From NCBI GenBank assembly GCA_032718475.1, contig JAUCBJ010009098.1, forward strand, positions 1 through 57,005: a stretch of DNA of 57,005 nt, in the 5' to 3' direction. This DNA comes from Nemertoderma westbladi (lineage: Eukaryota; Animalia; Xenacoelomorpha). Shown here one piece after another: positions 8,160-54,888 of the stretch (position 1 is the stretch's first letter; every line of letters begins with the position of its first letter). The position numbers and the translations under genes are program-made. Under the pieces are notes generated by a model. It made no database searches and was not told the DNA's origin. It saw only the letters and a program-made list of their open reading frames with translations.

Positions 8160-9691
8160 CCATTAACTCTGTCCCTGCCTGTGTCCCATTAACTCTGACC
8201 CGCCTGTGACCCACTAAATCTGTCCCCGCCCGAGTCCCATTAACTCTGTCCCCGCCTGTGTCCCATTAACTCTGTCCCCGCCTGTATCCCACTAACTATG
8301 ACCTGCCTGTGTCCCATTAACTCTGTCCCCGCCTGTGCCCCATTAACTCTGTCCCCGCCTGTGTCCACTAATTCTGACCCGCCTGTGTCCCACTAACTCT
8401 GTCCCCGCCTGTGTCCCATTAACTCTGTCCCCGCCTGTGTCCCATTAACTCTGTCCCCGCCTGTGTCCCATTAACTCTGTCCCCGCCTGTGCCCCATTAA
8501 CTCTGTCCCCGCCTGTGTCCACTAATTCTGACCCGCCTGTGTCCCACTAACTCTGTCCCCGCCTGTGTCCCATTAACTCTGTCCCCGCCTGTGTCCCATT
8601 AACTCTGTCCCAGCCTGTGTCCCATTAACTCTGCCCCCGCCTGTGTCCCATTAACTCTGTCCCCGCCTGTGTCCCATTAACTCTGTCCCCGCCTGTGTCC
8701 CACTAATTATGACCTGCCTGTGCCCCATTAACTCTGTCCCCGCCTGTGTCCCACTAATTCTGACCCGCCTGTGCCCCATTAACTCTGTCCCCGCCTGTGT
8801 CCCATTAACTCTGTCCCCGCCTGTGTCCCATTAACTCTGTCCCCGCTTGTGTCCCATTAACTCTGTCCCCGCCTGTGTCCCATTAACTCTGTCCCCGCAT
8901 GTGTCCCACTAATTCTGACCCGCCTGTGTCCCATTAACTCTGTCCCCGCATGTGTCCCGCTAACTCTAACCCCGCCTGTGTCCCATTAACTCTGTCCCCG
9001 CCTGTGTCCCATTAACTCTGTCCCCGCATGTGTCCCTCTAATTCTGACCCGCCTGTGTCCCATTAACTCTATCCCCGCCTGTGTCCCATTAACTCTGTCC
9101 CCGCCTGTGTCCCATTAACTCTGTCCCCGCCTGTGTCCCATTAACTCTGTCCCCGCTTGTGTCCCGCTAACTCTAACCTCGCCTGCGTCCCATTAACTCT
9201 GACCCGCCGTGACCCACTAAATCTGTCCCTGCCCGAGTCCCACTAACTCTGTCCCCGCCTGTGTCCCATTAACTCTGTCCTCGCCTGTGTCCCATTAACT
9301 CTGTCCCCGCCTGTCCCCGCCTGTGTCCCATTAACTCTGTCCCCGCATGTGTCCCACTAATTCTGACCCGCCTGTGTCCCATTAACTCTGTCCCCCCGCC
9401 TGTGTCCCATTAACTCTGTACCCCCGACTGTGTCCCATTAACTCTGTCCTCGCCTGTGTCCCATTAACTCTGTCCCCGCCTGTGTCCCATTAACTCTGTC
9501 CCCGCATGTGTCCCACTAATTCTGACCCGCCTGTGTCCCATTAACTCTGTCCCCGCATGTGTCCCGCTAACTCTAACCCCGCCTGTGTCCCATTAACTCT
9601 GTCCCCGCCTGTGTCCCATTAACTCTGTCCCCGCATGTGTCCCGCTAACTCTAACCCCGCCTGTGTCCCATTAACTCTGTCCCCCCGCCTG
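8160..9691. repeat. 25-26-bp minisatellite derived from the CKAP5 stop-codon region, about 58 copies
   Basis: Plus-strand unit cattaactctgtccccgcctgtgtcc. The terminal copy overlaps the last codons CAG GCG GGG GGA CAG AGT TAA. Confidence 0.95.
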
Positions 9692-10357
9692 TTTTATAAG
9701 CTCCAACCGCCTCTTTAGTTCCCCCATCGATGGGGTTCGGCCTTCCAACGAATCACCCGAATCGCTCCGATCCGTTAATGTTCCAACGATCTCGGTGACC
9801 ACCTCCGGCGGCATCTCATTGGCGGTCTCCGTGGTAACCGGTAGATTGAGCGCCGATCGGAACAACTCGAGTTTCTCCTCGGAAGTCCCGTTCACGGGGA
9901 CGTTGTTGCTCGCGACGCGATCTAACAGAGGCGCCCCCTTGTGGTGGAACTTCCGGATGTACCATAGGCCATTCCGAATAAACTTTCGTTTCTGTTCTGA
10001 GAACTCGGATAGTTTGGCGTCCATATCGTAGTCTGGGTTGGACTGCTTGTACTGATGCAGCGCCAGTAGACCCTGTTTCACGGTATCCTTGTTGCCGATC
10101 TGTTGGAATATAATCTCAACGGGTCCCAATGAACTCGGTATCTTTATGACGTCATCGTTGGCTACTTTAGTGTTGCTACGTCGTTTGATCTCCTTATTAA
10201 GAATCGCCTCGATCTCGCTGTTCTCTCTGTCCTCAATGAGTCCGAGGTGATGCAGGATAGCGCTGCCCTTAACGTCAACCATGTTGTGCAGGAGGGTCTT
10301 TACCGTTCGGAATATGTAATCGTCTTTGGCGCCATGCCAACCTCGCGATGGATGCAC
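9671..10357 (-). CDS. CKAP5: CKAP5 last coding exon (C-terminal tail)
   Basis: Acceptor acttaag|GTG. Translates VHPSRGW...FRTVKTLLH...IFQQIGNKDTVKQGLLALHQYK...ELKRRLELIK...QAGGQS, ending in TAA. Confidence 0.93.
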   Translation of the reverse strand: MHPSRGWHGAKDDYIFRTVKTLLHNMVDVKGSAILHHLGLIEDRENSEIEAILNKEIKRRSNTKVANDDVIKIPSSLGPVEIIFQQIGNKDTVKQGLLALHQYKQSNPDYDMDAKLSEFSEQKRKFIRNGLWYIRKFHHKGAPLLDRVASNNVPVNGTSEEKLELFRSALNLPVTTETANEMPPEVVTEIVGTLTDRSDSGDSLEGRTPSMGELKRRLELIKQAGGQS

Positions 10358-10404
10358 CTTAAGTAAACAAATAATTAAAATAACTAAACAACAACCTGAC
10401 TCTA

Positions 10405-13400
10405 TAGGAACCAGCAGACTTCCAAAAGGACTTCCTTACCTTTAGGAACCAGCAGACTTCTAAAAGGACTTCCTTACCTTTAGGAACCCGTGGACTTCTA
10501 AAAGGACTTCCTTACCTTTAGGTACCCGTGGACTTCCAAAAGGACTTCCTTACCTTTAGGAACCCGTGGAGTTCCAAAAGGACTTCCTTACCTTTAGGAA
10601 CCCGTGGACTTCCAAAAGGACTTCCTTACCTTTAGGAACCCGCGGACTTCCAAAAGGACTTCCTTACCTTTAGGAACCCGCGGACTTCCAAAAGGACTTC
10701 CTTACCTTTAGGAACCCGTGGACTTCCAAAAGGACTTCCTTACCTTTAGGAACCCGCGGACTTCCAAAAGGACTTCCTTACCTTTAGGAACCCGCGGACT
10801 TCCAAAAGGACTTCCTTACCTTTAGGAACCCGTGGACTTCCAAAAAGACTTACTTACCTTTAGGAATCCGTGGACTTCTAAAAGGACTTCCTTATCTTTA
10901 GGAACCCGTGGAGTTCCAAAAGGACTTCCTTACCTTTAGGAACCCGCGGACTTCCAAAAGGACTTCCTTACCTTTAGGTACCCGTGGACTTCCAAAAGGA
11001 CTTCCTTACCTTTAGGAACCCGTGGAGTTCCAAAAGGACTTCCTTACCTTTAGGAACCCGCGGACTTCCAAAAGGACTTCCTTACCTTTAGGAACCCGTG
11101 GACTTCCAAAAAGACTTCCTTACCTTTAGGAACCCGCGGACTTCCAAAAGGACTTCCTTACCTTTAGGAACCCGTGGAGTTCCAAAAGGACTTCCTTACC
11201 TTTAGGAATCCGCGGACTTCCAAAAGGACTTCCTTACCTTTAGGAACCCGTGGACTTCCAAAAGGACTTCCTTACCTTTAGGAACCCGTGGAGTTCCAAA
11301 AGGACTTCCTTACCTTTAGGAACCCGTGGACTTCCAAAAGGACTTCCTTACCTTTAGGAACCCGCGGACTTCCAAAAGGACTTCCTTACCTTTAGGAACC
11401 CGTGGACTTCCAAAAAGACTTACTTACCTTTAGGAATCCGTGGACTTCTAAAAGGACTTCCTTATCTTTAGGAACCCGTGGAGTTCCAAAAGGACTTCCT
11501 TACCTTTAGGAACCCGCGGACTTCCAAAAGGACTTCCTTACCTTTAGGTACCCGTGGACTTCCAAAAGGACTTCCTTACCTTTAGGAACCCGTGGAGTTC
11601 CAAAAGGACTTCCTTACCTTTAGGAACCCGCGGACTTCCAAAAGGACTTCCTTACCTTTAGGAACCCGTGGACTTCCAAAAAGACTTACTTACCTTTAGG
11701 AATCCGTGGACTTCCAAAAGGACTTCCTTACCTTTAGGAACCCGCGGACTTCCAAAAGGACTTCCTTACCTTTAGGAACCCGTGGACTTCCAAAAGGACT
11801 TCCTTACCTTTAGGAATCCGTGGACTTCCAAAAGGACTTCCTTACCTTTAGGAACCCGCGGACTTCCAAAAGGACTTCCTTACCTTTAGGAACCCGCGGA
11901 CTTCCAAAAGGACTTCCTTACCTTTAGGAACCCGTGGACTTCCAAAAGGACTTCCTTACCTTTAGGAACCCGCGGAGTTCCAAAAGGACTTCCTTACCTT
12001 TAGGAACCCGCGGACTTCTAAAAGGACTTCCTTATCTTTAGGAACCCGTGGAGTTCCAAAAGGACTTCCTTACCTTTAGGAACCCGTGGACTTCCAAAAG
12101 GACTTCCTTACCTTTAGGAACCCGCGGACTTCCAAAAGGACTTCCTTACCTTTAGGAACCCGTGGAGTTCCAAAAGGACTTCCTTACCTTTAGGAACCCG
12201 CGGACTTCCAAAAGGACTTCCTTACCTTTAGGAACCCGTGGAGTTCCAAAAGGACTTCCTTACCTTTAGGAACCCGCGGACTTCCAAAAGGACTTCCTTA
12301 CCTTTAGGAACCCGTGGAGTTCCAAAAGGACTTCCTTACCTTTAGGAACCCGTGGACTTCCAAAAGGACTTCCTTACCTTTAGGAACCCGCGGACTTCCA
12401 AAAGGACTTCCTTACCTTTAGGAACCCGTGGACTTCCAAAAGGACTTCCTTACCTTTAGGAACCCGCGGACTTCCAAAAGGACTTCCTTACCTTTAGGTA
12501 CCCGTGGACTTCCAAAAGGACTTCCTTACCTTTAGGAACCCGTGGAGTTCCAAAAGGACTTCCTTACCTTTAGGAACCCGTGGACTTCCAAAAGGACTTC
12601 CTTACCTTTAGGAACCCGCTATCTTCCAAAAGGACTTCCTTACCTTTAGGAACCCGTGGAGTTCCAAAAGGACTTCCTTACCTTTAGGAACCCGTGGACT
12701 TCCAAAAGGACTTCCTTACCTTTAGGAACCCGTGGACTTCCAAAAGGACTTCCTTACCTTTAGGAACCCGTGGACTTCCAAAAGGACTTCCTTACCTTTA
12801 GGAACCCGTGGTCTTCCAAAAGGACTTCCTTACCTTTAGGAACCCGCGGACTTCCAAAAGGACTTCCTTACCTTTAGGAACCCGTGGTCTTCCAAAAGGA
12901 CTTCCTTACCTTTAGGAACCCGCGGACTTCCAAAAGGACTTCCTTACCTTTAGGAACCCGTGGACTTCCAAAAGGACTTCCTTACCTTTAGGAACCCGTG
13001 GACTTCCAAAAGGACTTCCTTACCTTTAGGTACCCGTGGAGTTCCAAAAGGACTTCCTTACCGTCAGGAACCCGTGGACTTCCAAAAGGACTTCCTTACC
13101 TTTAGGTACCCGTGGAGTTCCAAAAGGACTTCCTTACCGTCAGGAACCCGTGGACTTCCAAAAAGACTTCCTTACCTTTAGGAACCCGTGGACTTCCAAA
13201 AGGACTTCCTTACCTTTAGGAACCCGTGGACTTCCAAAAGGACTTCCTTACCTTTAGGAATCCGTGGACTTCCAAAAGGACTTCCTTACCTTTAGGAACC
13301 CGTGGACTTCCAAAAGGACTTCCTTACCTTTAGGAACCCGCGGTCTTCCAAAAGGACTTCCTTACCTTTAGGAATCCGTGGAGTTCCAAAAGGACTTCCT

Positions 13401-16400
13401 TACCTTTAGGAACCCGTGGACTTCCAAAAGGACTTCCTTACCTTTAGGAACCCGTGGACTTCCAAAAGGACTTCCTTACCTTTAGGAACCCGTGGAGTTC
13501 CAAAAGGACTTCCTTACCTTTAGGAATCCGTGGAGTTCCAAAAGGACTTCCTTACCTTTAGGAAACCGTGGACTTCCAAAAGGACTTCCTTACCTTTAGG
13601 AATCCGTGGAGTTCCAAAAGGACTTCCTTACCTTTAGGAAACCGTGGACTTCCAAAAGGACTTCCTTACCTTTAGGAACCCGCGGTCTTCCAAAAGGACT
13701 TCCTTACCTTTAGGAACCCGCGGTCTTCCAAAAGGACTTCCTTACCTTTAGGAATCCGTGGAGTTCCAAAAGGACTTCCTTACCTTTAGGAATCCGTGGA
13801 GTTCCAAAAGGACTTCCTTACCTTTAGGAAACCGTGGACTTCCAAAAGGACTTCCTTACCTTTAGGAATCCGTGGAGTTCCAAAAGGACTTCCTTACCTT
13901 TAGGAAACCGTGGACTTCCAAAAGGACTTCCTTACCTTTAGGAATCCGTGGAGTTCCAAAAGGACTTCCTTACCTTTAGGAAACCGTGGACTTCCAAAAG
14001 GACTTCCTTACCTTTAGGAATCCGTGGAGTTCCAAAAGGACTTCCTTACCTTTAGGAAACCGTGGACTTCCAAAAGGACTTCCTTACCTTTAGGAATCCG
14101 TGGAGTTCCAAAAGGACTTCCTTACCTTTAGGAAACCGTGGACTTCCAAAAGGACTTCCTTACCTTTAGGAATCCGTGGAGTTCCAAAAGGACTTCCTTA
14201 CCTTTAGGAAACCGTGGACTTCCAAAAGGACTTCCTTACCTTTAGGAATCCGTGGAGTTCCAAAAGGACTTCCTTACCTTTAGGAATCCGCGGTCTTCCA
14301 AAAGGACTTCCTTACCTTTAGGAATCCGTGGAGTTCCAAAAGGACTTCCTTACCTTTAGGAAACCGTGGACTTCCAAAAGGACTTCCTTACCTTTAGGAA
14401 TCCGTGGAGTTCCAAAAGGACTTCCTTACCTTTAGGAAACCGTGGACTTCCAAAAGGACTTCCTTACCTTTAGGAACCCGCGGTCTTCCAAAAGGACTTC
14501 CTTACCTTTAGGAACCCGCGGTCTTCCAAAAGGACTTCCTTACCTTTAGGAATCCGTGGAGTTCCAAAAGGACTTCCTTACCTTTAGGAACCCGTGGACT
14601 TCCAAAAGGACTTCCTTACCTTTAGGAACCCGTGGACTTCCAAAAGGACTTCCTTACCTTTAGGAACCCGCGGACTTCCAAAAGGACTTCCTTACCTTTA
14701 GGAACCCGCGGACTTCCAAAAGGACTTCCTTACCTTTAGGTACCCGCGGAGTTCCAAAAGGACTTCCTTACCTTTAGGAACCCGCGGACTTCCAAAAGGA
14801 CTTCCTTACCTTTAGGAACCCGTGGACTTCCAAAAGGACTTCCTTACCTTTAGGAATCCGTGGAGTTCCAAAAGGACTTCCTTACCTTTAGGAAACCGTG
14901 GACTTCCAAAAGGACTTCCTTACCTTTAGGAACCCGCGGTCTTCCAAAAGGACTTCCTTACCTTTAGGAACCCGCGGACTTCCAAAAGGACTTCCTTACC
15001 TTTAGGAACCCGCGGACTTCCAAAAGGACTTCCTTACCTTTAGGAACCCGCGGACTTCCAAAAGGACTTCCTTACCTTTAGGAACCCGCGGACTTCCAAA
15101 AGGACTTCCTTACCTTTAGGAACCCGCGGACTTCCAAAAGGACTTCCTTACCTTTAGGAACCCGCGGACTTCCAAAAGGACTTCCTTACCTTTAGGTACC
15201 CGCGGAGTTCCAAAAGGACTTCCTTACCTTTAGGAACCCGCGGACTTCCAAAAGGACTTCCTTACCTTTAGGAACCCGTGGACTTCCAAAAGGACTTCCT
15301 TACCTTTAGGAATCCGTGGAGTTCCAAAAGGACTTCCTTACCTTTAGGAAACCGTGGACTTCCAAAAGGACTTCCTTACTTTTAGGAACCCGCGGTCTTC
15401 CAAAAGGACTTCCTTACCTTTAGGAACCCGCGGTCTTCCAAAAGGACTTCCTTACCTTTAGGAATCCGTGGAGTTCCAAAAGGACTTCCTTACCTTTAGG
15501 AACCCGTGGACTTCCAAAAGGACTTCCTTACCTTTAGGAACCCGTGGACTTCCAAAAGGACTTCCTTACCTTTAGGAACCCGTGGAGTTCCAAAAGGACT
15601 TCCTTACCTTTAGGAATCCGTGGAGTTCCAAAAGGACTTCCTTACCTTTAGGAAACCGTGGACTTCCAAAAGGACTTCCTTACCTTTAGGAATCCGTGGA
15701 GTTCCAAAAGGACTTCCTTACCTTTAGGAAACCGTGGACTTCCAAAAGGACTTCCTTACCGTCAGGAACCCGTGGACTTCCAAAAGGACTTCCTTACCTT
15801 TAGGAACCCGTGGAGTTCCAAAAGGACTTCCTTACCTTTAGGAACCCGTGGACTTCCAAAAGGACTTCCTTACCTTTAGGAACCCGTGGAGTTCCAAAAG
15901 GACTTCCTTACCTTTAGGAACCCGTGGACTTCCAAAAGAACTTCCTTACCTTTAGGAACCCGTGGAGTTCCAAAAGGACTTCCTTACCTTTAGGAACCCG
16001 TGGACTTCCAAAAGGACTTCCTTACCTTTAGGAACCCGTGGACTTCCAAAAGGACTTCCTTACCTTTAGGAACCCGTGGAGTTCCAAAAGGACTTCCTTA
16101 CCTTTAGGAACCCGCGGACTTCCAAAAGGACTTCCTTACCTTTAGGAACCCGCGGACTTCCAAAAGGACTTCCTTACCTTTAGGAACCCGCGGACTTCCA
16201 AAAGGACTTCCTTACCTTTAGGAACCCGCGGACTTCCAAAAGGACTTCCTTACCTTTAGGAACCCGTGGACTTCCAAAAGGACTTCCTTACCTTTAGGAA
16301 CCCGTGGAGTTCCAAAAGGACTTCCTTACCTTTAGGAATCCGCGGACTTCCAAAAGGACTTCCTTACCTTTAGGAACCCGTGGACTTCCAAAAGGACTTC

Positions 16401-19400
16401 CTTACCTTTAGGAATCCGTGGAGTTCCAAAAGGACTTCCTTACCTTTAGGAACCCGTGGACTTCCAAAAGAACTTCCTTACCTTTAGGAACCCGTGGAGT
16501 TCCAAAAGGACTTCCTTACCTTTAGGAACCCGTGGACTTCCAAAAGGACTTCCTTACCTTTAGGAACCCGTGGACTTCCAAAAGGACTTCCTTACCTTTA
16601 GGAATCCGTGGAGTTCCAAAAGGACTTCCTTACCTTTAGGAACCCGTGGACTTCCAAAAAAACTTCCTTACCTTTAGGAACCCGTGGAGTTCCAAAAGGA
16701 CTTCCTTACCTTTAGGAACCCGTGGACTTCCAAAAGGACTTCCTTACCTTTAGGAACCCGTGGACTTCCAAAAGGACTTCCTTACCTTTAGGAACCCGTG
16801 GAGTTCCAAAAGGACTTCCTTACCTTTAGGAACCCGCGGACTTCCAAAAGGACTTCCTTACCTTTAGGAACCCGCGGACTTCCAAAAGGACTTCCTTACC
16901 TTTAGGAACCCGCGGACTTCCAAAAGGACTTCCTTACCTTTAGGAACCCGCGGACTTCCAAAAGGACTTCCTTACCTTTAGGAACCCGTGGACTTCCAAA
17001 AGGACTTCCTTACCTTTAGGAACCCGTGGAGTTCCAAAAGGACTTCCTTACCTTTAGGAATCCGCGGACTTCCAAAAGGACTTCCTTACCTTTAGGAACC
17101 CGTGGACTTCCAAAAGGACTTCCTTACCTTTAGGAATCCGTGGAGTTCCAAAAGGACTTCCTTACCTTTAGGAATCCGTGGAGTTCCAAAAGGACTTCCT
17201 TACCTTTAGGAACCCGCGGACTTCCAAAAGGACTTTCTTACCTTTAGGAATCCGCGATCTTCCAAAAGGACTTCCTTACCTTTAGGAACCCGCGGACTTC
17301 CAAAAGGACTTCCTTACCTTTAGGAATCCGCGATCTTCCAAAAGGACTTCCTTACCTTTAGGAACCCGCGGACTTCCAAAAGGACTTCCTTACCTTTAGG
17401 AATCCGTGGACTTCCAAAAGGACTTCCTTACCTTTAGGAACCCGCGGACTTCCAAAAGGACTTCCTTACCTTTAGGAATCCGCGGACTTCCAAAAGGACT
17501 TCCTTACCTTTAGGAACCCGTGGAGTTCCAAAAGGACTTCCTTACCTTTAGGAACCCGCGGACTTCCAAAAGGACTTCCTTACCTTTAGGAATCCGTGGA
17601 GTTCCAAAAGGACTTCCTTACCTTTAGGAACCCGCGGATTTCCAAAAGGACTTCCTTACCTTTAGGAACCCGTGGAGTTCCAAAAGGACTTCCTTACCTT
17701 TAGGAACCCGCGGTCTTCCAAAAGGACTTCCTTACCTTTAGGAACCCGTGGACTTCCAAAAGGACTTCCTTACCTTTAGGAACCCGCGGACTTCCAAAAG
17801 GACTTTCTTACCTTTAGGAACCCGCGGATTTCCAAAAGGACTTCCTTACCTTTAGGAACCCGTGGAGTTCCAAAAGGACTTCCTTACCTTTAGGAACCCG
17901 CGGTCTTCCAAAAGGACTTCCTTACCTTTAGGAACCCGCGGATTTCCAAAAGGACTTCCTTACCTTTAGGAACCCGTGGAGTTCCAAAAGGACTTCCTTA
18001 CCTTTAGGAACCCGCGGTCTTCCAAAAGGACTTCCTTACCTTTAGGAACCCGCGGATTTCCAAAAGGACTTCCTTACCTTTAGGAACCCGTGGAGTTCCA
18101 AAAGGACTTCCTTACCTTTAGGAACCCGCGGTCTTCCAAAAGGACTTCCTTACCTTTAGGAACCCGTGGACTTCCAAAAGGACTTCCTTACCTTTAGGAA
18201 TCCGTGGAGTTCCAAAAGGACTTCCTTACCTTTAGGAACCCGCGGACTTCCAAAAGGACTTTCTTACCTTTAGGAATCCGCGATCTTCCAAAAGGACTTC
18301 CTTACCTTTAGGAACCCGCGGACTTCCAAAAGGACTTCCTTACCTTTAGGAATCCGCGATCTTCCAAAAGGACTTCCTTACCTTTAGGAACCCGCGGACT
18401 TCCAAAAGGACTTCCTTACCTTTAGGAATCCGTGGACTTCCAAAAGGACTTCCTTACCTTTAGGAACCCGCGGACTTCCAAAAGGACTTCCTTACCTTTA
18501 GAAATCCGCGGACTTCCAAAAGGACTTCCTTACCTTTAGGAATCCGTGGACTTCCAAAAGGACTTACTTACCTTTAGGAACCCGTGGACTTCCAAAAGGA
18601 CTTCCTTACCTTTAGGAACCCGTGGACTTCCAAAAGGACTTCCTTACCTTTAGGAACCCGCGGACTTCCAAAAGGACATCCTTACCTTTAGGAACCCGTG
18701 GACTTCCAAAAGGACTTCCTTACATTTAGGAACCCGCGGTCTTCCAAAAGGACTTCCTTACCTTTAGGAACCCGCGGACTTCCAAAAGGACTTCCTTACC
18801 TTTAGGAATCCGCGGTCTTCTAAAAGGACTTCCTTACCTTTAGGAACCCGTGGACTTCCAAAAGGACTTCCTTACCTTTAGGAACCCGCGGACTTCCAAA
18901 AGGACTTCCTTACCTTTAGGAACCCGCGGACTTCCAAAAGGACTTCCTTACCTTTAGGAACCCGTGGACTTCCAAAAGGACTTCCTTACCTTTAGGTACC
19001 CGCGGTCTTCCAAAAGGACGTTTTTACCTTTAGGAACCCGCGGTCTTCCAAAAGGACTTTCTTACCTTTAGGAATCCGCGGTCTTCCAAAAGGACTTCCT
19101 TACCTTTAGGAACCCGTGGACTTCCAAAAGGACTTCCTTACCTTTAGGAACCCGCGGACTTCCAAAAGGACTTTCTTACCTTTAGGAATCCGTGGACTTC
19201 CAAAAGGACTTCCTTACCTTTAGGAACCCGTGGACTTCCAAAAGGACTTCCTTACCTTTAGGAACCCGTGGACTTCCAAAAGGACTTCCTTACCTTTAGG
19301 AACCCGTGGACTTCCAAAAGGACTTCCTTACCTTTAGGTACCCGTGGACTTCCAAAAGGACTTCCTTACCTTTAGGAACCCGCGGACTTCCAAAAGGACT

Positions 19401-28243: not shown

Positions 28244-28335
28244 ATCCAAATTGAGATCGGAGAAGAAACCATCTGATTTCATCCGTTTCCACAAACATTT
28301 CATAGGTAAGTTGATATGTCGGTCGTCTACCATAT
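28211..28335 (-). CDS. CKAP5: CKAP5 penultimate exon (not in ORF track)
   Basis: Acceptor tttctag|AT and donor AAG|gtaagg; 125 nt. Translates (D)MVDDRHINLPMKCLWKRMKSDGFFSDLNLDEVLLEVHGFLK, with the conserved MKCLW and L..+LL++H.F+K motifs. Confidence 0.92.
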
Positions 28336-28342
28336 CTAGAAA

Positions 28343-39111: not shown

Positions 39112-39211
39112 NNNNNNNNNNNNNNNNNNNNNNNNNNNNNNNNNNNNNNNNNNNNNNNNNNNNNNNNNNNNNNNNNNNNNNNNNNNNNNNNNNNNNNNNN
39201 NNNNNNNNNNN
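39112..39211. other. Assembly gap (100 N)
   Basis: Run of Ns at the junction between the exon and the array. Confidence 0.99.
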
Positions 39212-39536
39212 CTCTTGCCAAGGATTTCTTCTGCATTAGGTTCATTACTGTCCCCAACAAACAACGAATTAATTGGAAACATTCTAACTCCATAGAAGTA
39301 TCTCCTTCCTGATTGGCTGAAGGTTTACCTAATGCCAATTGGAATTGGAAACAAGTCGTCATGAGAAACTTATCCACGTGTTCCTTAAAATCCAAACAAC
39401 GTGATTGGTCGGATATGAGTATGTCGATCTCTGACAGCGCTCCTATCACAGTGTTGCTATCAGTAGATGCGATCTGAGATATTACCGTATCAAACATAGA
39501 TGATTGAGTGCTCGCTTTGGTTAATACCCGGGTATT
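39212..39536 (-). CDS. CKAP5: CKAP5 exon (C-terminal TOG-like region); 3' end truncated by assembly gap
   Basis: Acceptor ttgcag|AAT. Translates ...FDTVISQIASTDSNTVIGALSEID...MNLMQKKSLAR, then runs into Ns; the expected end is AGA GAG|gtgagt. An alternative in-frame acceptor lies at 39605. Confidence 0.85.
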
Positions 39537-42600: not shown

Positions 42601-45600
42601 TGTTTTAGTTTTAATTAGAACTGCTGCTTCTAGTGTTGGTGTTTTAGTTTTAATTAGAACTGCTGCTTCTAGTGTTGGTGTTTTAGTTTTAATTAGAACT
42701 GCTGCTTCTAGTGTTGGTGTTTTAGTTTTAATTAGAACTGCTGCTTCTAGTGTTGGTGTTTTAGTTTTAATTAGAACTGCTGCTTCTAGTGTTGGTGTTT
42801 TAGTTTTGATTAGAACTGCTGCTTCTAGTGTTTGTGTTTTAGTTTTAATTAGAACTGCTGCTTCTAGTGTTGGTGTTTTAGTTTTAATTAGAACTGCTGC
42901 TTCTAGTGTTGGTGTTTTAGTTTTAATTAGAACTGCTTCTTCTAGTGTTGGTGTTTTAGTTTTAATTAGAACTGCTGCTTCTAGTGTTGGTGTTTTAGTT
43001 TTAATTAGAACTGCTTCTTCTAGTGTTGGTGTTTTAGTTTTAATTAGAACTGCTGCTTCTAGTGTTGGTGTTTTAGTTTTAATTAGAACTGCTGCTTCTA
43101 GTGTTGGTGTTTTAGTTTTAATTAGAACTGCTGCTTCTAGTGTTGGTGTTTTAGTTTTAATTAGAACTGCTGCTTCTAGTGTTGGTGTTTTAGTTTTAAT
43201 TAGAACTGCTTCTTCTAGTGTTGGTGTTTTAGTTTTAATTAGAACTGCTGCTTCTAGTGTTGGTGTTTTAGTTTTAATTAGAACTGCTGCTTCTAGTGTT
43301 GGTGTTTTAGTTTTAATTAGAACTGCTGCTTCTAGTGTTGGTGTTTTAGTTTTAATTAGAACTGCTGCTTCTAGTGTTGGTGTTTTAGTTTTAATTAGAA
43401 CTGCTGCTTCTAGTGTTGGTGTTTTAGTTTTAATTAGAACTGCTGCTTCTAGTGTTGGTGTTTTAGTTTTAATTAGAACTGCTGCTTCTAGTGTTGGTGT
43501 TTTAGTTTTAATTAGAACTGATGCTTCTAGTGTTGGTGTTTAGTTTTAATTAGAACTGCTGCTTCTAGTGTTGGTGTTTTAGTTTTAATTAGAACTGCTG
43601 CTTCTAGTGTTGGTGTTTTAGTTTTAATTAGAACAGGCTGCTTCTAGTGTTGGTGTTTTAGTTTTAATTAGAACAGGCTGCTTCTAGTGTTGGTGTTTTA
43701 GTTGTAATTAGAACTGCTGCTTCTAGTGTTGGTGTTGCTGCTTCTAGTGTTGGTGTTTTAGTTTTAATTAGAACTGCTGCTTCTAGTGTTGGTGTTTTAG
43801 ATTTAATTAGAACTGCTGCTTCTAGTGTTGGTGTTTTAGTTTTAATTAGAACTGCTGCTTCTAGTGTTGGTGTTTTAGTTTTAATTAGAACTGCTGCTTC
43901 TAGTGTTGGTGTTTTAGTTTTAATTAGAACTGCTGCTTCTAGTGTTGGTGTTTTAGTTTTAATTAGAACTGCTGCTTCTAGTGTTGGTGTTTTAGTTTTA
44001 ATTAGAACTGCTGCTTCTAGTGTTGGTGTTTTAGTTTTAATTAGAACTGCTGCTTCTAGTGTTGGTGTTTTAGTTTTAATTAGAACTGCTGCTTCTAGTG
44101 TTGGTGTTTTAGTTTTAATTAGAACTGCTGCTTCTAGTGTTGGTGTTTTAGTTTTAATTAGAACTGCTGCTTCTAGTGTTGGTGTTTTAGTTTTAATTAG
44201 AACTGCTGCTTCTAGTGTTGGTGTTTTAGTTTTAATTAGAACTGCTGCTCCTAGTGTTGGTGTTTTAGTTTTAATTAGAACTGCTGCTTCTAGTGTTGGT
44301 GTTTTAGTTTTAATTAGAACTGCTGCTTCTAGTGTTGGTGTTTTAGTTTTAATTAGAACTGCTGCTTCTAGTGTTGGTGTTTTAGTTTTAATTAGAACTG
44401 CTGCTCCTAGTGTTGGTGTTTTAGTTTTAATTAGAACAGGCTGCTTCCAGTGTTGGTGTTTTAGTTTTAATTAGAACTGCTGCTTCTAGTGTTGGTGTTT
44501 TAGTTTTAATTAGAACTGCTGCTTCTAGTGTTGGTGTTTTAGTTTTAATTAGAACTGCTGCTTCTAGTGTTGGTGTTTTAGTTTTAATTAGAACTGCTGC
44601 TTCTAGTGTTGGTGTTTTAGTTTTAATTAGAACTGCTGCTTCTAGTGTTGGTGTTTTAGTTTTAATTAGAACTGCTGCTTCTAGTGTTGGTGTTTTAGTT
44701 TTAATTAGAACTGCTGCTTCTAGTGTTGGTGTTTTAGTTTTAATTAGAACTGATGCTTCTAGTGTTGGTGTTTAGTTTTAATTAGAACTGCTGCTTCTAG
44801 TGTTGGTGTTTTAGTTTTAATTAGAACTGCTGCTTCTAGTGTTGGTGTTTTAGTTTTAATTAGAACAGGCTGCTTCTAGTGTTGGTGTTTTAGTTGTAAT
44901 TAGAACTGCTGCTTCTAGTGTTGGCGTTGCTGCTTCTAGTGTTGGTGTTTTAGTTTTAATTAGAACTGCTGCTTCTAGTGTTGGTGTTTTAGTTTTAATT
45001 AGAACAGGCTGCTTCTAGTGTTGGTGTTTTAGTTGTAATTAGAACTGCTGCTTCTAGTGTTGGTGTTGCTGCTTCTAGTGTTGGTGTTTTAGTTTTAATT
45101 AGAACTGCTGCTTCTAGTGTTGGTGTTTTAGATTTAATTAGAACTGCTGCTTCTAGTGTTGGTGTTTTAGTTTTAATTAGAACTGCTGCTTCTAGTGTTG
45201 GTGTTTTAGTTTTAATTAGAACTGCTGCTTCTAGTGTTGGTGTTTTAGTTTTAATTAGAACTGCTGCTTCTAGTGTTGGTGTTTTAGTTTTAATTAGAAC
45301 TGCTGCTTCTAGTGTTGGTGTTTTAGTTTTAATTAGAACTGCTGCTTCTAGTGTTGGTGTTTTAGTTTTAATTAGAACTGCTGCTTCTAGTGTTGGTGTT
45401 TTAGTTTTAATTAGAACTGCTGCTTCTAGTGTTGGTGTTTTAGTTTTAATTAGAACTGCTGCTTCTAGTGTTGGTGTTTTAGTTTTAATTAGAACTGCTG
45501 CTTCTAGTGTTGGTGTTTTAGTTTTAATTAGAACTGCTGCTTCTAGTGTTGGTGTTTTAGTTTTAATTAGAACTGCTGCTCCTAGTGTTGGTGTTTTAGT

Positions 45601-47237
45601 TTTAATTAGAACTGCTGCTTCTAGTGTTGGTGTTTTAGTTTTAATTAGAACTGCTGCTTCTAGTGTTGGTGTTTTAGTTTTAATTAGAACTGCTGCTTCT
45701 AGTGTTGGTGTTTTAGTTTTAATTAGAACTGCTGCTCCTAGTGTTGGTGTTTTAGTTTTAATTAGAACAGGCTGCTTCCAGTGTTGGTGTTTTAGTTTTA
45801 ATTAGAACTGCTGCTTCTAGTGTTGGTGTTTTAGTTTTAATTAGAACTGCTGCTTCTAGTGTTGGTGTTTTAGTTTTAATTAGAACTGCTGCTTCTAGTG
45901 TTGGTGTTTTAGTTTTAATTAGAACTGCTGCTTCTAGTGTTGGTGTTTTAGTTTTAATTAGAACTGCTGCTTCTAGTGTTGGTGTTTTAGTTTTAATTAG
46001 AACTGCTGCTTCTAGTGTTGGTGTTTTAGTTTTAATTAGAACTGCTGCTTCTAGTGTTGGTGTTTTAGTTTTAATTAGAACTGCTGCTTCTAGTGTTGGT
46101 GTTTTAGTTTTAATTAGAATTGCTGCTTCTAGTGTTGGTGTTTTAGTTTTAATTAGAACTGCTGCTTCTAGTGTTGGTGTTTTAGTTTTAATTAGAACTG
46201 CTGCTTCTAGTGTTGGTGTTTTAGTTTTAATTAGAACTGCTGCTTCTAGTGTTGGTGTTTTAGTTTTAATTAGAACTGCTGCTCCTAGTGTTGGTGTTTT
46301 AGTTTTAATTAGAACTGCTGCTTCTAGTGTTGGTGTTTTAGTTTTAATTAGAACTGCTGCTTCTAGTGTTGGTGTTTTAGTTTTAATTAGAACTGCTGCT
46401 TCTAGTGTTGGTGGTTTAGTTTTAATTAGAACTGCTGCTCCTAGTGTTGGTGTTTTAGTTTTAATTAGAACAGGCTGCTTCTAGTGTTGGTGTTTTAGTT
46501 TTAATTAGAACTGCTGCTTCTAGTGTTGGTGTTTTAGTTTTAATTAGAACTGCTGCTTCTAGTGTTGGTGTTTTAGTTTTAATTAGAACTGCTGCTTCTA
46601 GTGTTGGTGTTTTAGTTTTAATTAGAACTGCTGCTTCTAGTGTTGGTGTTTTAGTTTTAATTAGAACTGCTGCTTCTAGTGTTGGTGTTTTAGTTTTAAT
46701 TAGAACTGCTGCTTCTAGTGTTGGTGTTTTAGTTTTAATTAGAACTGCTGCTTCTAGTGTTGGTGTTTTAGTTTTAATTAGAACTGCTGCTTCTAGTGTT
46801 GGTGTTTTAGTTTTAATTAGAACTGCTGCTTCTAGTGTTGGTGTTTTAGTTTTAATTAGAACTGCTGCTTCTAGTGTTGGTGTTTTAGTTTTAATTAGAA
46901 CTGCTGCTTCTAGTGTTGGTGTTTTAGTTTTAATTAGAACTGCTGCTTCTAGTGTTGGTGTTTTAGTTTTAATTAGAACTGCTGCTTCTAGTGTTGGTGT
47001 TTTAGTTTTAATTAGAACTGATGCTTCTAGTGTTGGTGTTTTAGTTTTAATTAGAACTGCTGCTTCTAGTGTTGGTGTTTTAGTTTTAATTAGAACTGTT
47101 GCTTCTAGTGTTGGTGTTTTAGTTTTAATTAGAACTGCTGCTTCTAGTGTTGGTGTTTTAGTTTTAATTAGAACTGCTGCTTCTAGTGTTGGTATTTTAG
47201 TTTTAATTAGAACTGCTGCTTCTAGTGCTGGTGTTTT
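39618..47237. repeat. 39-bp satellite, about 195 copies
   Basis: Unit ttagaactgctgcttctagtgttggtgttttagttttaa. Confidence 0.96.
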
Positions 47238-47239
47238 TT

Positions 47240-47560
47240 TCCGTGAGGACCAGCCAGTGCAAAATCTTCTGCTTTGGCGACTCATGGATTGAATCCGTAT
47301 GGTGGACAGCCCATGACTTTCGTGAGACGCCTCCTAAAGGACACTGGCCTTGAAGATGCGGATGATCTCGCGAAAGTCATGGGTGATAGGGAGTTGTGGC
47401 AGTGCAACTTTGTTTATAAGCCGTATGGTATTCTTAATGCACACTGAATTGGGGCGGCCAATTGTGGATTCATGGTGGTGGCAAAAATAGTTTTGTTATA
47501 AGCTGGCATATCATCTCAATGTGCAGTTTCAATGCAGCAGGCCGATTATAGTAGTAGTAT
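47240..47560 (+). mobile_element. 3' fragment of an RTE-like LINE
   Basis: Translates REDQPVQNLLLW...GGQPMTFVRRLLKDTGLEDADDLAKVMGDRELW, matching the C-termini of the other two copies. Ends in tagtagtagt. Confidence 0.85.
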
Positions 47561-47581: not shown

Positions 47582-47743
47582 CTGATTTGGAGGAATTTCT
47601 TTTGAACGGATAGACGGAGGAACAACCTGGTAATCCAACATCTCATCCAATTCTTCCACTAGTCTCTTATCATCTTCGACATCATTAGCGTCATTAGGAA
47701 TATCGAAATTAGACTCAAACTTCTCAATATCCAATGTAAAATG
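47582..47743 (-). CDS. CKAP5: CKAP5 exon
   Basis: Acceptor atttag|CAT and donor CAG|gtgagt; 162 nt. Translates HFTLDIEKFE...LDEMLD...IPPNQ, containing the F-x-L-D motif of the ch-TOG linker. Confidence 0.82.
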
Positions 47744-47889: not shown

Positions 47890-47993
47890 CTTTTCAACCG
47901 GTTGGCTTTGCATAGACGGTATCTGCATAGACGATTTTCTACTGCTGGGCGCCGAAATGGATTTATTCATAGTTGTATTAAGTGTCTTAGACC
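47890..47993 (-). CDS. CKAP5: CKAP5 linker exon (not in ORF track)
   Basis: Acceptor atttag|GG and donor AAG|gtttct; 104 nt, open in the required phase (1 to 0): (G)SKTLNTTMNKSISAPSSRKSSMQIPSMQSQPVEK. Supported mainly by phase fit, as the sequence is poorly conserved. Confidence 0.7.
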
Positions 47994-48712: not shown

Positions 48713-48905
48713 CCGACAGTATTGCAGCTACTTCTGTATCCAGTCTCCCAGCAACCGGCCCCCCCGTTCTATTTAACTGCATCGAGGCCTTTCGCTCTGG
48801 CCGGTCTTCCTTGTTCGCGACTTTAGGGACTTTATTTGATCTCTTTATTCTTTCCTCCAACATTCCCCTATCTTTAGCGGAAAGCTGTCCCACTTGCTTG
48901 TAAAT
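48713..48905 (-). CDS. CKAP5: CKAP5 exon (end of TOG5 plus linker)
   Basis: Acceptor ttttacag|ATT and donor TCG G|gttagt; 193 nt. Translates IYKQVGQLSAKDRGMLEERIKRS... Confidence 0.9.
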
Positions 48906-48946: not shown

Positions 48947-49415
48947 TTAGACCAGGGATTACGCGGCCGGTAGACCAGGGATTACGCGGCCGGTAGACCA
49001 GGGATTATGCGGCCGGTAGACCAAGGGATTACGCGGCCGGTAGACCAGGGATTACGCGGCCGGTAGACCAGGGATTACGCGGCCGGTAGACCAAGGGATT
49101 ACGCGGCCGGTAGACCAGGGATTACGCGGCCGGTAGACCAGGGATTACGCGGCCGGTAGACCAGGGATTACGCGGCCGGTAGACCAGAGATTACGCGGCC
49201 GGTAGACCAGGGATTACGCGGCCGTTCCGGTAGACCAGGGATCACGCGGCCGGTCCGGTAGACCAGGGATTACGCAGCCGGTTTAACAGGTATTACGCAG
49301 CCGGTCCGGTAGACCAGGGATTACGCGGCCAGTCCGGTAGACCAGGGATTACGCGGCCGTTCCGGTAGACCAGGTATCACGCGGCCGGTCCGGTAGACCA
49401 GGGATTACGCGGCCG
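48947..49415. repeat. 23-27-bp GC-rich minisatellite, about 19 copies
   Basis: Unit ggtagaccagggattacgcggcc. Confidence 0.93.
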
Positions 49416-49948
49416 GAACATGAAGGCGAAACGTGAGCGAGAGGAATGTGACGAACAGAACAGGAACAACATGAGAAACGAGAGCAAGATAGAATAGACA
49501 TGGAGCATGAGAGAGAGAGCAGAGAACAATTAGAGCGAGGGAGGAAGCGAGAGAACAAGTAATAATAGAAAATAATAAAAGGAAAGCGGCAGAGAAAGAG
49601 TATGCTATACAACATGAGATAGCGGGAGAGCAGAGAGAATTATTAGAAATAGAGGAACAACAATCAGATATAGCGCATAGGAATAGAGGCGAACCAACCA
49701 GTAGATAAATTATTACTATGGAAACCCTATTAAAGGGGGTATTAGTACGGTTGATCGACACTAGCCAAACAATCCTGAAATCAGATAGAAACTGATAAAA
49801 ATTGGTACCGGTACCGGCATGCCAGTATTGTGCGCCATCTTGAGGACAATGCGGATAATGTCTTATACTATTAGTATTGTATGTTACTAGAACACTACTA
49901 TTACTCAGTTACTGTATTGGGCCTACTGTCACCGTCATGGATGAATTA

Positions 49949-50146
<198 letters not shown>

Positions 50147-51171
50147 TTAATTTTCATAAAATAATCATTCATTCGTTTCTTTACGGTGGCTGATTTAAAA
50201 GAGCGCAAGTCACAAAATGCCATTTCGGGTAAAACGCAATTAGTGTTGGCCTTCAGATTGTTGGTTTAAAATGTCCGTAAATTACAAATTTTTTATAACC
50301 CTACGCAATTGGGAAATTTTTCTATGTGATTATTTTCACTTTTCATTAATATTTTGACTTCAGGGTAATTTTTGGTACTTACTGTAAGCGGATTCAATTC
50401 CCTGTACTACCAGCGGAAAATGGGGAAAGTGGCTTTTTACCGATTATAGTTTGGAAGGTGACATTACTAATATAATGTCACCTAATAACCAACTTAAGCG
50501 ATACACATTGCCAAGCAGAGTTGAGAGGTCATAAGCCATCTCAAGGGGACAAAGGGGCTAGCGACAAGGGATAGTGGCAACAAGGAGTGCTGAAGGGGAG
50601 ATTAAATAGGTCAGCCAATGATGGGACGGGAAACCATGTGATTGAAGCGCATCCATTGGCCAGGCCACTTAGAGCAGTAAGAGTAACCAATATGTGTTGA
50701 TAATATAACTGTTGAATTAATTGCTTATGATTCAGTTGGTATGTGTAGAGGTGTGGGACCGGAACGGTTTTTAACCGTCGCCATTACCGTGCTATTATAT
50801 TCTGATTGTGCTATTATTATATTCTGACATTACGAACAACTGCCACTAAAACTCAGTTATTCAAACGGCCTTTGGCCTTAGAGTTCAGGTACTATCAGGC
50901 CTTTCAGCAACCCACTGACGCGGCGACTCGTATAATCCAAACAACACACCGGTCGGGATCCATACTGCCAACTCCAGGATCCCATCACACTTACGGTGTT
51001 TTTGCATTATACAACCTGTATGTAAATACATATTTCAAGACACATATTTAAAAAAAAACCGTATGTACGTTTTCATATTATCTATGCGATGAAAAAATAC
51101 CGCAAGTCTTGTTGATAATAACAATGTGTTGGCAAGATGTCATTTTCGAGGTATTTGTTATTATACATTTA

Positions 51172-51460
51172 TAGGAAGGGATCTAGGGGTCTTAACCTCG
51201 ATTGATAAGTTTATTTTACCGAAAATAACTTATCTTTTATTGGCGCAATTGTAGGACTAATCCCATCACATGCGTAGTTTTTACCCGGGTAGTGTACAAA
51301 TTTAGCAAATTTAAAATTAATAAATGCGATTCCTAAATTTGTACACTACCCGGTTAAAAAGTCAATTGCGCCAATAAAAAATATGCGCCAATAAAAGATA
51401 AAGTTTTTTTCTGTAAAATAAACTTATCATTCGAGGTTAAGACCCCTAGATCCCTTCCTA
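51172..51460. mobile_element. MITE / fold-back element
   Basis: About 80-bp imperfect terminal inverted repeats (taggaagggatctaggggtcttaacctcga... and ...tcgaggttaagacccctagatcccttccta) flanked by TA, plus an inner inverted repeat gggtagtgtacaaatttag/ctaaatttgtacactaccc. Confidence 0.88.
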
Positions 51461-51518
51461 TAGCAAGTCTTGTTGACTTACGTTTTTTTTTTTGCATAAA
51501 TTTAAGTAGTTGCGGTCT

Positions 51519-52182
51519 TTTTCAACCAATCAGAAACCTCCTTAATTTAGTTTATTTATTTTTTCAACCAATCAGAAACCTCCTTAATTTAGTTTATTTA
51601 TTTTTTCAACCAATCAGAAACCTCCTTAATTTAGTTTATTTATTTTTTCAACCAATCAGAAACCTCCTTAATTTAGTTTATTTATTTTTTCAACCAATCA
51701 GAAACCTCCTTAATTTAGTTTATTTATTTTTTCAACCAATCAGAAACCTCCGTAATTTAGTTTATTTATTTTTTCAACCAATCAGAAACCTCCTTAATTT
51801 AGTTTTTATATTTTTTCAACCAATCAGAAACCTCCTTAATTTAGTTTATTTATTTTTTCAACCAATCAGAAACCTCCTTAATTTAGTTTATTTATTTTTT
51901 CAACCAATCAGAAACCTCCTTAATTTAGTTTATTTATTTTTTCAACCAATCAGAAACCTCCTTAATTTAGTTTATTTATTTTTTCAACCAATCAGAAACC
52001 TCCTTAATTTAGTTTATTTATTTTTTCAACCAATCAGAAACCTCCTTAATTTAGTTTATTTATTTTTTCAACCAATCAGAAACCTCCGTAATTTAGTTTA
52101 TTTATTTTTTCAACCAATCAGAAACCTCCTTAATTTAGTTTATCTATTTTTTCAACCAATCAGAAACCTCCTTAATTTAGTT
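51519..52182. repeat. 42-bp minisatellite, about 15 copies
   Basis: Unit caaccaatcagaaacctccttaatttagtttatttatttttt. Confidence 0.93.
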
Positions 52183-52421
52183 CATTTTGTTTTTGTTTTC
52201 TTAATCTCCTGAACAACGTAATTTAGTTTATTTTTTCTTAATCACATCACAAAAATTAAATTATGTGGCCTAAATCAGCCACCGTATTTCTTGAAATATT
52301 AACTTAATTTAATATTTGTTTGTCTATTTTACTAAATCCAAGATATTATTTTACTCCAATGTACTTTATTTTACACCTACAAATTCATTGAGTAGATGAA
52401 AAGGTCAGTGCATGAAAAGGT

Positions 52422-54887
52422 CCACATTATAATTACGGATGTAACCTTTACTAATAGGACTGCCACTTTATAAGTACGGATGTAACCTTTACTAATAGGA
52501 CTGCCACTTTATAAGTACGGATGTAACCTTTACTAATAGGACTGCCACTTTATAAGTACGATGTAACCTTTACTAATAGGACTGCCACATTATAAGTACG
52601 GATGTAACCTTTACTAATAGGACTGCCACTTTATAAGTACGGATGTAACCTTTACTAATAGGACTGCCACATTATAAGTACGGATGTAACCTTTACTAAT
52701 AGGACTGCCACTTTATAAGTACGGATGTAACCTTTACTAATAGGACTGCCACTTTATAAGTACGGATGTAACCTTTACTAATAGGACTGCCACTTTATAA
52801 GTACGGATGTAACCTTTACTAATAGGACTGCCACTTTATAAGTACGGATGTAACCTTTACTAATAGGACTGCCACATTATAAGTACGGATGTAACCTTTA
52901 CTAATAGGACTGCCACATTATAAGTACGGATGTAACCTTTACTAATAGGACTGCCACTTTATAAGTACGGATGTAACCTTTACTAATAGGACTGCCACTT
53001 TATAAGTACGGATGTAACCTTTACTAATAGGACTGCCACATTATAAGTACGGATGTAACCTTTACTAATAGGACTGCCACTTTATAAGTACGGATGTAAC
53101 CTTTACTAATAGGACTGCCACATTATAAGTACGGATGTAACCTTTACTAATAGGACTGCCACATTATAAGTACGGATGTAACCTTTACTAATAGGACTGC
53201 CACATTATAATTACGGATGTAACCTTTACTAATAGGACTGCCACATTATAAGTACGGATGTAACCTTTACTAATAGGACTGCCACATTATAAGTACGGAT
53301 GTAACCTTTACTAATAGGACTGCCACATTATAAGTACGGATGTAACCTTTACTAATAGGACTGCCACTTTATAAGTACGATGTAACCTTTACTAATAGGA
53401 CTGCCACATTATAAGTACGGATGTAACCTTTACTAATAGGACTGCCACATTATAAGTACGGATGTAACCTTTACTAATAGGACTGCCACTTTATAAGTAC
53501 GGATGTAACCTTTACTAATAGGACTGCCACTTTATAAGTACGGATGTAACCTTTACTAATAGGACTGCCACATTATAAGTACGGATGTAACCTTTACTAA
53601 TAGGACTGCCACTTTATAAGTACGGATGTAACCTTTACTAATAGGACTGCCACATTATAAGTACGGATGTAACCTTTACTAATAGGACTGCCACTTTATA
53701 AGTACGGATGTAACCTTTACTAATAGGACTGCCACTTTATAAGTACGGATGTAACCTTTACTAATAGGACTGCCACATTATAAGTACGGATGTAACCTTT
53801 ACTAATAGGACTGCCACTTTATAAGTACGGATGTAACCTTTACTAATAGGACTGCCACTTTATAAGTACGGATGTAACCTTTACTAATAGGACTGCCACA
53901 TTATAAGTACGGATGTAACCTTTACTAATAGGACTGCCACATTATAAGTACGGATGTAACCTTTACTAATAGGACTGCCACATTATAAGTACGGATGTAA
54001 CCTTTACTAATAGGACTGCCACTTTATAAGTACGGATGTAACCTTTACTAATAGGACTGCCACATTATAAGTACGGATGTAACCTTTACTAATAGGACTG
54101 CCACTTTATAAGTACGGATGTAACCTTTACTAATAGGACTGCCACATTATAAGTACGGATGTAACCTTTACTAATAGGACTGCCACATTATAAGTACGGA
54201 TGTAACCTTTACTAATAGGACTGCCACTTTATAAGTACGGATGTAACCTTTACTAATAGGACTGCCACATTATAAGTACGGATGTAACCTTTACTAATAG
54301 GACTGCCACTTTATAAGTACGGATGTAACCTTTACTAATAGGACTGCCACTTTATAAGTACGGATGTAACCTTTACTAATAGGACTGCCACTTTATAAGT
54401 ACGGATGTAACCTTTACTAATAGGACTGCCACTTTATAAGTACGGATGTAACCTTTACTAATAGGACTGCCACTTTATAAGTACGGATGTAACCTTTACT
54501 AATAGGACTGCCACTTTATAAGTACGGATGTAACCTTTACTAATAGGACTGCCACTTTATAAGTACGGATGTAACCTTTACTAATAGGACTGCCACTTTA
54601 TAAGTACGGATGTAACCTTTACTAATAGGACTGCCACTTTATAAGTACGGATGTAACCTTTACTAATAGGACTGCCACTTTATAAGTACGGATGTAACCT
54701 TTACTAATAGGACTGCCACATTATAAGTACGGATGTAACCTTTACTAATAGGACTGCCACTTTATAAGTACGGATGTAACCTTTACTAATAGGACTGCCA
54801 CTTTATAAGTACGGATGTAACCTTTACTAATAGGACTGCCACTTTATAAGTACGGATGTAACCTTTACTAATAGGACTGTCACTTTA
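52422..54887. repeat. 41-bp minisatellite, about 60 copies, starting at a splice donor
   Basis: Unit gtacggatgtaacctttactaataggactgccac(t/a)ttataa. Confidence 0.95.
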
Positions 54888-54888
54888 C

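Follow-up and report, generated by a model that had tools for sequence, protein, structure and literature searches.

Here, we describe the 3′ part of a CKAP5/ch-TOG gene of Nemertoderma westbladi (Xenacoelomorpha), whose introns are largely filled by tandem repeat arrays, several of which touch the gene's own exon boundaries. The gene, which encodes a protein involved in building microtubules, is located on the minus strand of contig JAUCBJ010009098.1 (assembly GCA_032718475.1, positions 1 to 57,005). This whole stretch of 57,005 nucleotides is referred to as the window, and the start of the gene lies upstream of it. Ten exons, joined by coordinates, yield a model that stays open over 1208 codons and was aligned to 11 of 120 homologues. 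Five sequencing runs from three studies, here X1 to X5, contain the gene, and none of them is recorded as RNA. X1 and X2 behave as DNA, and either may be the source of the assembly. X4 and X5 were treated as RNA, which we infer from their contigs, in which exons are connected at GT-AG sites and the intron stubs lack coverage. The coding exons are listed below, with the evidence in parentheses.

56682..56984, minus strand: CKAP5 coding exon, the first inside the window (open reading frame; open frame in the joined model)
54889..56308, minus strand: large CKAP5 coding exon with TOG domains (homologue matches, Pfam)
50033..50139, minus strand: CKAP5 coding exon (joined model)
48713..48905, minus strand: CKAP5 coding exon (joined model)
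47890..47993, minus strand: predicted CKAP5 coding exon, variable linker (frame and splice signals)
47582..47743, minus strand: predicted CKAP5 coding exon, variable linker (joined model)
39212..39536, minus strand: CKAP5 coding exon, last 2 bases and donor inside an assembly gap (X4 joint via 2 further bases)
30695..30893, minus strand: CKAP5 coding exon (X4 splices at both ends; X1 and X2 DNA contigs cover the exon and its flanks)
28211..28335, minus strand: CKAP5 coding exon, whose last 33 bases form the first part of a 38-bp repeat unit (exactly 125 letters between the flanking exons in X4)
9671..10357, minus strand: last CKAP5 coding exon, stop codon at 9673-9671 (open reading frame, joined model)

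The large exon (54889..56308) carries the Pfam families CLASP_N and XMAP215_CLASP_TOG and shows 38-50% identity to named CKAP5/mini spindles (Msps) proteins, with echinoderms and hemichordates on top. The homologue search places the protein no nearer to vertebrates than to other animals. Among the best 120 of 327 matches (38-50%), none exceeds 50% identity, a second search gave at most 49% among the 150 of 1776 matches listed, and the last exon had no match among 2310 candidates. At the six array-bearing introns, five junctions lie in gap-free alignment and the sixth, at the intron with the 39-bp array, in a variable linker. An extra exon candidate at 48555-48460 or 48440 was dropped, as all four combinations contain stops and the frame is open without it. 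The array-free introns of the gene measure 146-719 bases. GC content varies from 0.28 to 0.57 per kb across the window. The two long exons (54889-56308 and 9671-10357) are GC-rich, with about 0.56 per kb, and the short exons and intron remnants are AT-rich.

Arrays were detected by Tandem Repeats Finder (TRF) on the window, which recovered all arrays named in the first-pass annotation at their places. Altogether, arrays make up 77% of the window. They occur in six of the nine complete CKAP5 introns and account for 37,616 of 43,689 intron bases (86%).

52422..54887, minus strand: 41-bp array, about 60 copies, beginning 1 base past the donor G at 54888 (TRF; junction from gap-free alignment only)
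51518..52194, minus strand: 42-bp array, 16 copies, mid-intron and off boundaries (TRF)
48948..49416, minus strand: 23-bp array, about 19 copies, ending 42 bases from an acceptor, without boundary sequence (TRF)
39618..47237, minus strand: 39-bp array, about 192 copies with variant blocks, ending 81 bases from an acceptor, without boundary sequence (TRF)
39112..39211, no strand: assembly gap of 100 N at the junction of exon and 37-bp array, concealing the true array length
30956..39111, minus strand: 37-bp array, 220.5 copies, 99% matched (TRF)
30278..30652, minus strand: 22-bp array, 17 copies (TRF)
28343..28389, minus strand: last two units of the 22-bp array, ending 7 bases from the used acceptor 28336 (TRF, X4)
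10405..28243, minus strand: 38-bp array, 469.8 copies, followed by 47 unique intron bases (TRF)
8159..9684, minus strand: 26-bp array, about 59 copies, 87% matched (TRF)

After collapsing the arrays and removing long interspersed nuclear elements (LINEs), the six array-bearing introns measure 47, 71, 106, 142, 681 and 1689 bases. Four of them are thus tiny, and the other two are not. It also turned out that the length of the 2.4-kb intron is not caused by its array, since 1888 of its 2359 bases (80%) belong to a LINE.

Within the window, each cluster is confined to its own intron. The 12 different units have no word longer than 11 bases in common, and their longest match to the array-masked window is 15 bases. 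Unit GC content ranges from 24 to 64%, and units are 84-99% matched. Most arrays end in a partial unit, and variant blocks recur within the 38- and 39-bp arrays. Absent from the first-pass annotation are the 42-bp array, with its nearest acceptor at a distance of 1378 bases, and four downstream arrays with units of 30, 35, 46 and 50 bp, all of them off the CKAP5 boundaries. The 11-base word, the longest between any two units, has a CCAAT core and occurs in the 37- and 42-bp units. The 30-bp unit (array 1-238) has a similar CCAAT core on the other strand, which could point to a dispersed source.

The closest relation between array and gene is found in case of the 38-bp unit, which consists of the last 33 coding bases of the exon and 5 intron bases. 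This unit was copied locally from the gene and is the sole one for which such an origin is proven, because it encodes conserved protein sequence. The donor is kept in 435 of 455 split units. The commonest variant, which accounts for 92 of 438 full-length intronic units, is identical to the exon copy, and others exhibit coding-breaking changes. There are 61 distinct unit types in non-random order, and the last unit at the far end has a decayed donor. Beyond it lie the 47 unique bases (10358-10404). If the decayed unit marks the old donor, the ancestral intron had about 43 bases and would have been shorter than any array-free intron of the gene.

The boundary is covered by 13 bases of the 37-bp unit, 6 matching the exon end and 7 the intron, including the donor, of which 217 copies are visible. 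The other 24 bases could not be traced to a source. The 100-N gap contains the authentic junction, which is visible through RNA alone. As a side observation, the donor of the preceding intron (47572-47583) and that of the 37-bp unit have a 12-base word in common, which extends 4 bases beyond the usual donor consensus. The 38- and 37-bp units are the only ones that span an exon-intron boundary, in good agreement with the earlier statement that these two arrays contain the 5′ splice site. The 41-, 42-, 39-, 23- and 22-bp arrays are wholly intronic, and no array copies an acceptor together with the start of an exon.

The other associations named in the first-pass annotation were recovered as well, with some refinement. 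The 41-bp array starts at a donor, albeit one base past its G, and the common units do not carry that GT. The 22-bp unit comprises a branch-point-like word and a pyrimidine tract, as described, and additionally an AG, of which there are 18 copies. The distances of the 39- and 23-bp arrays from their acceptors, given as about 80 and 40 nt, are those listed above. Finally, in the 26-bp array, described as the stop-codon region, the stop codon (9673-9671) lies within the first unit.

Despite these many copies of splice signals, the transcript contigs indicate ordinary splicing. The stretches compared with the runs exclude whole arrays, and joints across a whole array were not observed directly. 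X4 and X5, which derive from two studies, both use the first donor of the 38-bp array to connect the 125-base exon with the last exon. An X4 contig runs from the exon at 39212 directly into that at 30893, which shows that splicing employs the authentic donor within the gap rather than any of the 217 visible copies. In X4, moreover, position 30695 is joined to 28335, which skips the 18 unit AGs in favour of the last AG. The unit AG is located 13 bases from the branch-point-like A and the used AG 19 bases, and this difference may explain the choice. Correct splicing was therefore seen at three of the six array-bearing introns (38, 37 and 22 bp), for the latter two in one run. Minor use of other splice copies is possible, because contigs drop rare variants. 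In X3 nothing matched on the first stretch compared, which is not proof of absence. Taken together, the view of a recurrent local tandem amplification that inflates introns and leaves the frame intact is supported, with correct splicing at these three introns, a local origin shown for the 38-bp unit and 12 different units without longer words in common.

Could the arrays be small in reality and have been inflated or mis-joined by the assembly? The 100-N gap at the exon/37-bp junction and the 99% uniformity of the 37-bp array would fit such an error. In X2, the 26-bp unit has less than twice the exon depth (39-43 vs 23.3), which does not fit 59 copies. However, X1 and X2 contigs run from the last exon into both adjoining arrays, many contigs with variant units occur at high depth (37 and 71 records), and the 38-bp array has 61 distinct unit types in non-random order. 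One of X1 and X2 may be the assembly source. All in all, we consider an assembly artefact very unlikely.

A different origin of the units has to be weighed in view of the mobile elements found next to the arrays:

28390..30277, minus strand: non-LTR (long terminal repeat) retrotransposon with RVT_1, located within the 22-bp array and carrying a 348-bp internal tandem duplication (Pfam, TRF)
47238..47559, plus strand: 3′ fragment of a non-LTR retrotransposon, directly bordering the 39-bp array (blastn, tblastn; right end by eye)
51050..51492, no strand: foldback element resembling a miniature inverted-repeat transposable element, consisting of nested inverted repeats and sharing its intron with the 41- and 42-bp arrays (62-nt arms 95% complementary, inner 31-nt hairpin)

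A further LINE-related remnant at 2560-3800 (minus strand; match near 2615-2780) adjoins the 46-bp array. Both LINE fragments show 71-85% DNA identity to the LINE at 28390-30277. The RVT_1 frame of the latter is open over 622 codons despite the duplication, and an 11-base word flanks the element on both sides, which could represent a target duplication or just the 22-bp unit.

Several units might be foreign fillers or transposon pieces that were inserted with a short target duplication and then amplified via this duplication, the boundary words being the duplicated target. Removal of all 37-bp units leaves a complete GT-AG intron of 69 bases, and removal of the 22-bp units together with the LINE leaves a complete intron of about 64 bases, each with an overlap of 13-14 bases. 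The CCAAT-core word of the 37- and 42-bp units fits this idea, and so do the LINE fragment abutting the 39-bp array, the LINE held by the 22-bp array and the remnant adjoining the 46-bp array. The 38-bp unit, being conserved coding sequence, is left unexplained by it, though, and matches of the units to the array-masked window are at most 15 bases long. Furthermore, the summed contig depth of the 38-bp unit amounts to about 560-1650x that of unique exon (X2 and X1, respectively) compared to 470 assembled copies, which, as depth is not copy number, suggests only roughly the order of one array rather than a genome-wide family. An origin from inserted fillers thus appears unlikely.

The explanation that we regard as probable is that short local duplications were amplified and tolerated by splicing, with no need for a machinery aimed at boundaries. 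Ordinary short duplications would form at any place in a genome or region prone to repeats. The partial units at most array ends suggest that the arrays were seeded by replication slippage or microhomology repair, and the recurring blocks of unit variants suggest growth by recombination, i.e., unequal exchange or template switching. If the introns had 50-150 bases before expansion, a duplication of 22-41 bases would often overlap a boundary. Selection would purge frame-breaking duplications, and donor copies would be tolerated. Such copies are presumably harmless because the most upstream donor wins, as reported for human F7 (PMC1557585). With transcripts using the first donor and the last acceptor, the arrays would be spliced away.

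The chance of boundary contact was estimated for this one selected gene by reducing each array to one unit and placing the seven units randomly, with the acceptor AG spared, in 200,000 draws. Four of the seven intronic arrays touch a boundary zone and three of them a donor. When units are kept in their own introns and LINEs are removed, 2.35-2.37 of 7 contacts are expected against the four seen (P 0.10-0.11), and 1.9 donor contacts against three (P 0.25). The nearness to boundaries is thus likely a by-product of short introns. The caveat already attached to the first-pass annotation, namely that short ancestral introns and selection produce such a pattern, accounts for it at this level.

A number of results weigh against our explanation. 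With all nine introns pooled, only 0.44-0.77 contacts are expected vs four seen, with P 0.0005-0.004 (0.0005 with LINEs kept, 0.002 with LINEs removed, 0.004 with the foldback element also removed), and P 0.004-0.019 for donors. Boundary overlap in CKAP5 is hence more than chance against the pooled null and not so against the own-intron null. The two nulls differ because four arrays reside in introns collapsing to 47-142 bases. That four of seven arrays occupy collapsed introns of at most 150 bases is itself unexpected (0.88 expected, P 0.007), and the own-intron null hides this excess by conditioning on the intron. It may reflect a real preference, flanking DNA lost in expansion or later insertions elsewhere. 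Even the own-intron null gives P 0.008 when LINEs are kept. The intron of the 41-bp array still has 1246-1689 bases after collapsing, and the array begins 1 base from a donor, for which the own-intron chance is about 0.024. In addition, the ancestral intron lengths are assumed rather than seen, with no relative above 50% identity at hand, and local origin is proven for one unit only. None of the P values represents a clean test, because the zones were defined post hoc, the stop-codon array and the downstream arrays are uncounted, and the window was chosen for its pattern.

These results bear directly on the possibility that seeding is biased to processing signals, e.g., where polymerases stall or lesions form at splice sites and gene ends (R-loops, pausing, nucleosome edges). 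Such a bias would account for the rejection of the pooled null by four of seven arrays, for the 41-bp array next to its donor, for the stop codon in the first 26-bp unit and for five different signals being touched in one gene. It is at odds with the own-intron null after removal of LINEs, which is not rejected, and the thresholds set post hoc in a window selected for the pattern reduce the weight of the pooled result. The 42-bp array and the four downstream arrays are off the CKAP5 boundaries, and the 39- and 23-bp units carry no boundary sequence. An R-loop type of strand bias was looked for and none was found, as the sense-strand GC skew of the gene's eight arrays ranges from -0.39 to +0.63 with no common direction. 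We hold seeding at processing signals to be improbable. Accordingly, the earlier proposal that amplification is aimed at boundaries is not supported, with an own-intron P of 0.10-0.11, and neither is the coupling to transcription or splicing that had been considered.

A special situation is given at the end of the gene. An X5 contig passes through the stop codon into the 26-bp array, which stands at 30-50x exon depth. Because of this read-through, the array likely belongs to the 3′ untranslated region (UTR) and would make up nearly all of the predicted read-through UTR. A polyadenylation-like hexamer is found at 8143. The 26-bp unit may be a copy of the native gene end or may have replaced it; in 96 of 120 homologues the tail could be scored and has 3-7 residues (4 in 66 of them), compared to 6 here. 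One X4 contig suggests a different outcome, a candidate intron that would excise the array:

7636..9707, minus strand: candidate alternative GT-AG intron, removing the stop codon together with the 26-bp and 50-bp arrays (one X4 contig)

This contig departs from the exon at 9708 and resumes near 7635, with a loose end of 28 letters matching 7607-7634. At the joint, contig and window disagree in one base, which is possibly allelic. A splice from 9708 to 7635 would drop the stop codon, the conserved last helix and two arrays and would add an unconserved in-frame tail. The candidate comes from this single contig, and X5 reads through instead.

ARAGORN called no tRNA genes. An Rfam search of 47994-52421 gave three matches far below the gathering score, all on the foldback element. 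A stretch at 48330-48410 (minus strand) in the 719-base intron looks tRNA-like by eye and is possibly the head of a short interspersed nuclear element; ARAGORN and Rfam gave no call for it. Six-frame reading of 1-8100 in search of a second gene did not establish one. The 35-bp array at 964-2369 has possible splice signals near both ends (an AG about 12 bases off on the minus strand; GT and AG candidates on the plus strand), and there may be a second gene in 1-8100 that carries boundary arrays. The 46/49-bp array at 3877-6817 has GC-richer unique sequence on both sides and immediately precedes the LINE remnant. It may have expanded within the 5′ region of the element or within another gene's exon.

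Introns that are enlarged by satellites around an intact frame recall the Y fertility genes of Drosophila. Their giant introns reach the megabase scale and consist of simple satellites, which are not known to be copies of the genes' own boundaries. The closest match is avian sequence stuttering (Hron et al. 2026, PMC12954441), a strictly local tandem expansion of introns on GC-rich dot chromosomes. There, an exon edge with donor or acceptor is copied in 190 of 5,572 dot-chromosome introns, in 1-44 copies and over spans of up to 23.5 kb. Two of its three main features, introns filled by repeats and occasional copying of exon edges, are found in CKAP5, the third being length variation between individuals. 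In both cases, introns of ordinary genes have grown by tandem repeats, which in CKAP5 are local within the window, several independent clusters occur per gene and intergenic DNA is affected too, and the 38- and 37-bp units copy an exon edge with its donor (PMC12954441). CKAP5 differs in that it belongs to a non-vertebrate and lacks high GC (units 24-64%), has about 470 exon copies instead of 1-44, and exhibits a stop-codon array (PMC12954441).

Similar repeats are the mirage minisatellites of lancelets, which span boundaries in Adh3, the globins BflGb6 and BflGb9, troponin C and PGBD5 (PMC3087553, PMC3902484). Their units have 10-160 bp, and BflGb6 has 3-6 of them (PMC3087553). As in CKAP5, units span the exon-intron boundary, many units carry splice signals, splicing is normal and edge units are diverged (PMC3087553). 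The 38- and 37-bp arrays show the mirage features that were tested, i.e., a boundary span, undisturbed splicing and concerted evolution with diverged edges (PMC3087553, PMC1557585). Unlike the mirage of BflGb6 with its 3-6 units, the CKAP5 arrays hold hundreds of units, none copies an acceptor plus exon start, and several do not include a boundary (PMC3087553). In human F7, a variable number tandem repeat (VNTR) in intron 7 has a unit of 37 bp (4 exon and 33 intron bases), and mutation demonstrated that the most upstream donor is used (PMC1557585). Other human donor-spanning repeats are located in 6-16, CBS, LMNB2 and PDGF (PMC1557585). Like the lancelet mirages, these human repeats represent the form that is limited to a single boundary. 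The F7 repeat is close to our 37-bp unit: the first unit spans the boundary, identical pseudo-donors follow, and the upstream donor is used (PMC1557585). The human VNTRs have 5-25 copies and one array per gene, unlike the 220-470 copies and six array-bearing introns here (PMC1557585). Loosely relevant are reports on transposon-driven intron growth under low recombination (PMC12728734) and on minisatellites altering human gene structure (PMC2812944).

Exact-word literature searches, which missed PMC12954441, found no report of whole-gene stuttering at such a copy number in an invertebrate. Nor did these exact-word searches yield a study in which the enrichment of arrays at boundaries was tested across a genome against a collapsed-intron null. 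The CKAP5 arrays are thus an extreme case of a known repeat type, the amplification itself having been described before as stuttering and mirages. Distinctive are the copy number, the stop-codon array and the one contig that splices this array out. A far-reaching view would be a lineage-wide stuttering without high GC, born preferentially at donors, branch points and stops, which would have expanded introns of 50-150 bases to 8-18 kb and given the gene a new intron excising the stop array. As a whole, we find this quite unlikely.

The arrays extend stuttering, known from birds and mentioned for gerbils, to a distant animal without GC-rich DNA. They also offer a natural test of donor choice, with about 470 near-identical donors in a row, of which only the first is seen in transcript contigs of two studies. 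For annotation they are a warning, as arrays of this kind interrupt assemblies precisely where exons end. Should a bias to processing signals hold genome-wide, RNA processing would be linked to where tandem repeats arise, and there would be a fast route to changes in intron size and to intron gain.

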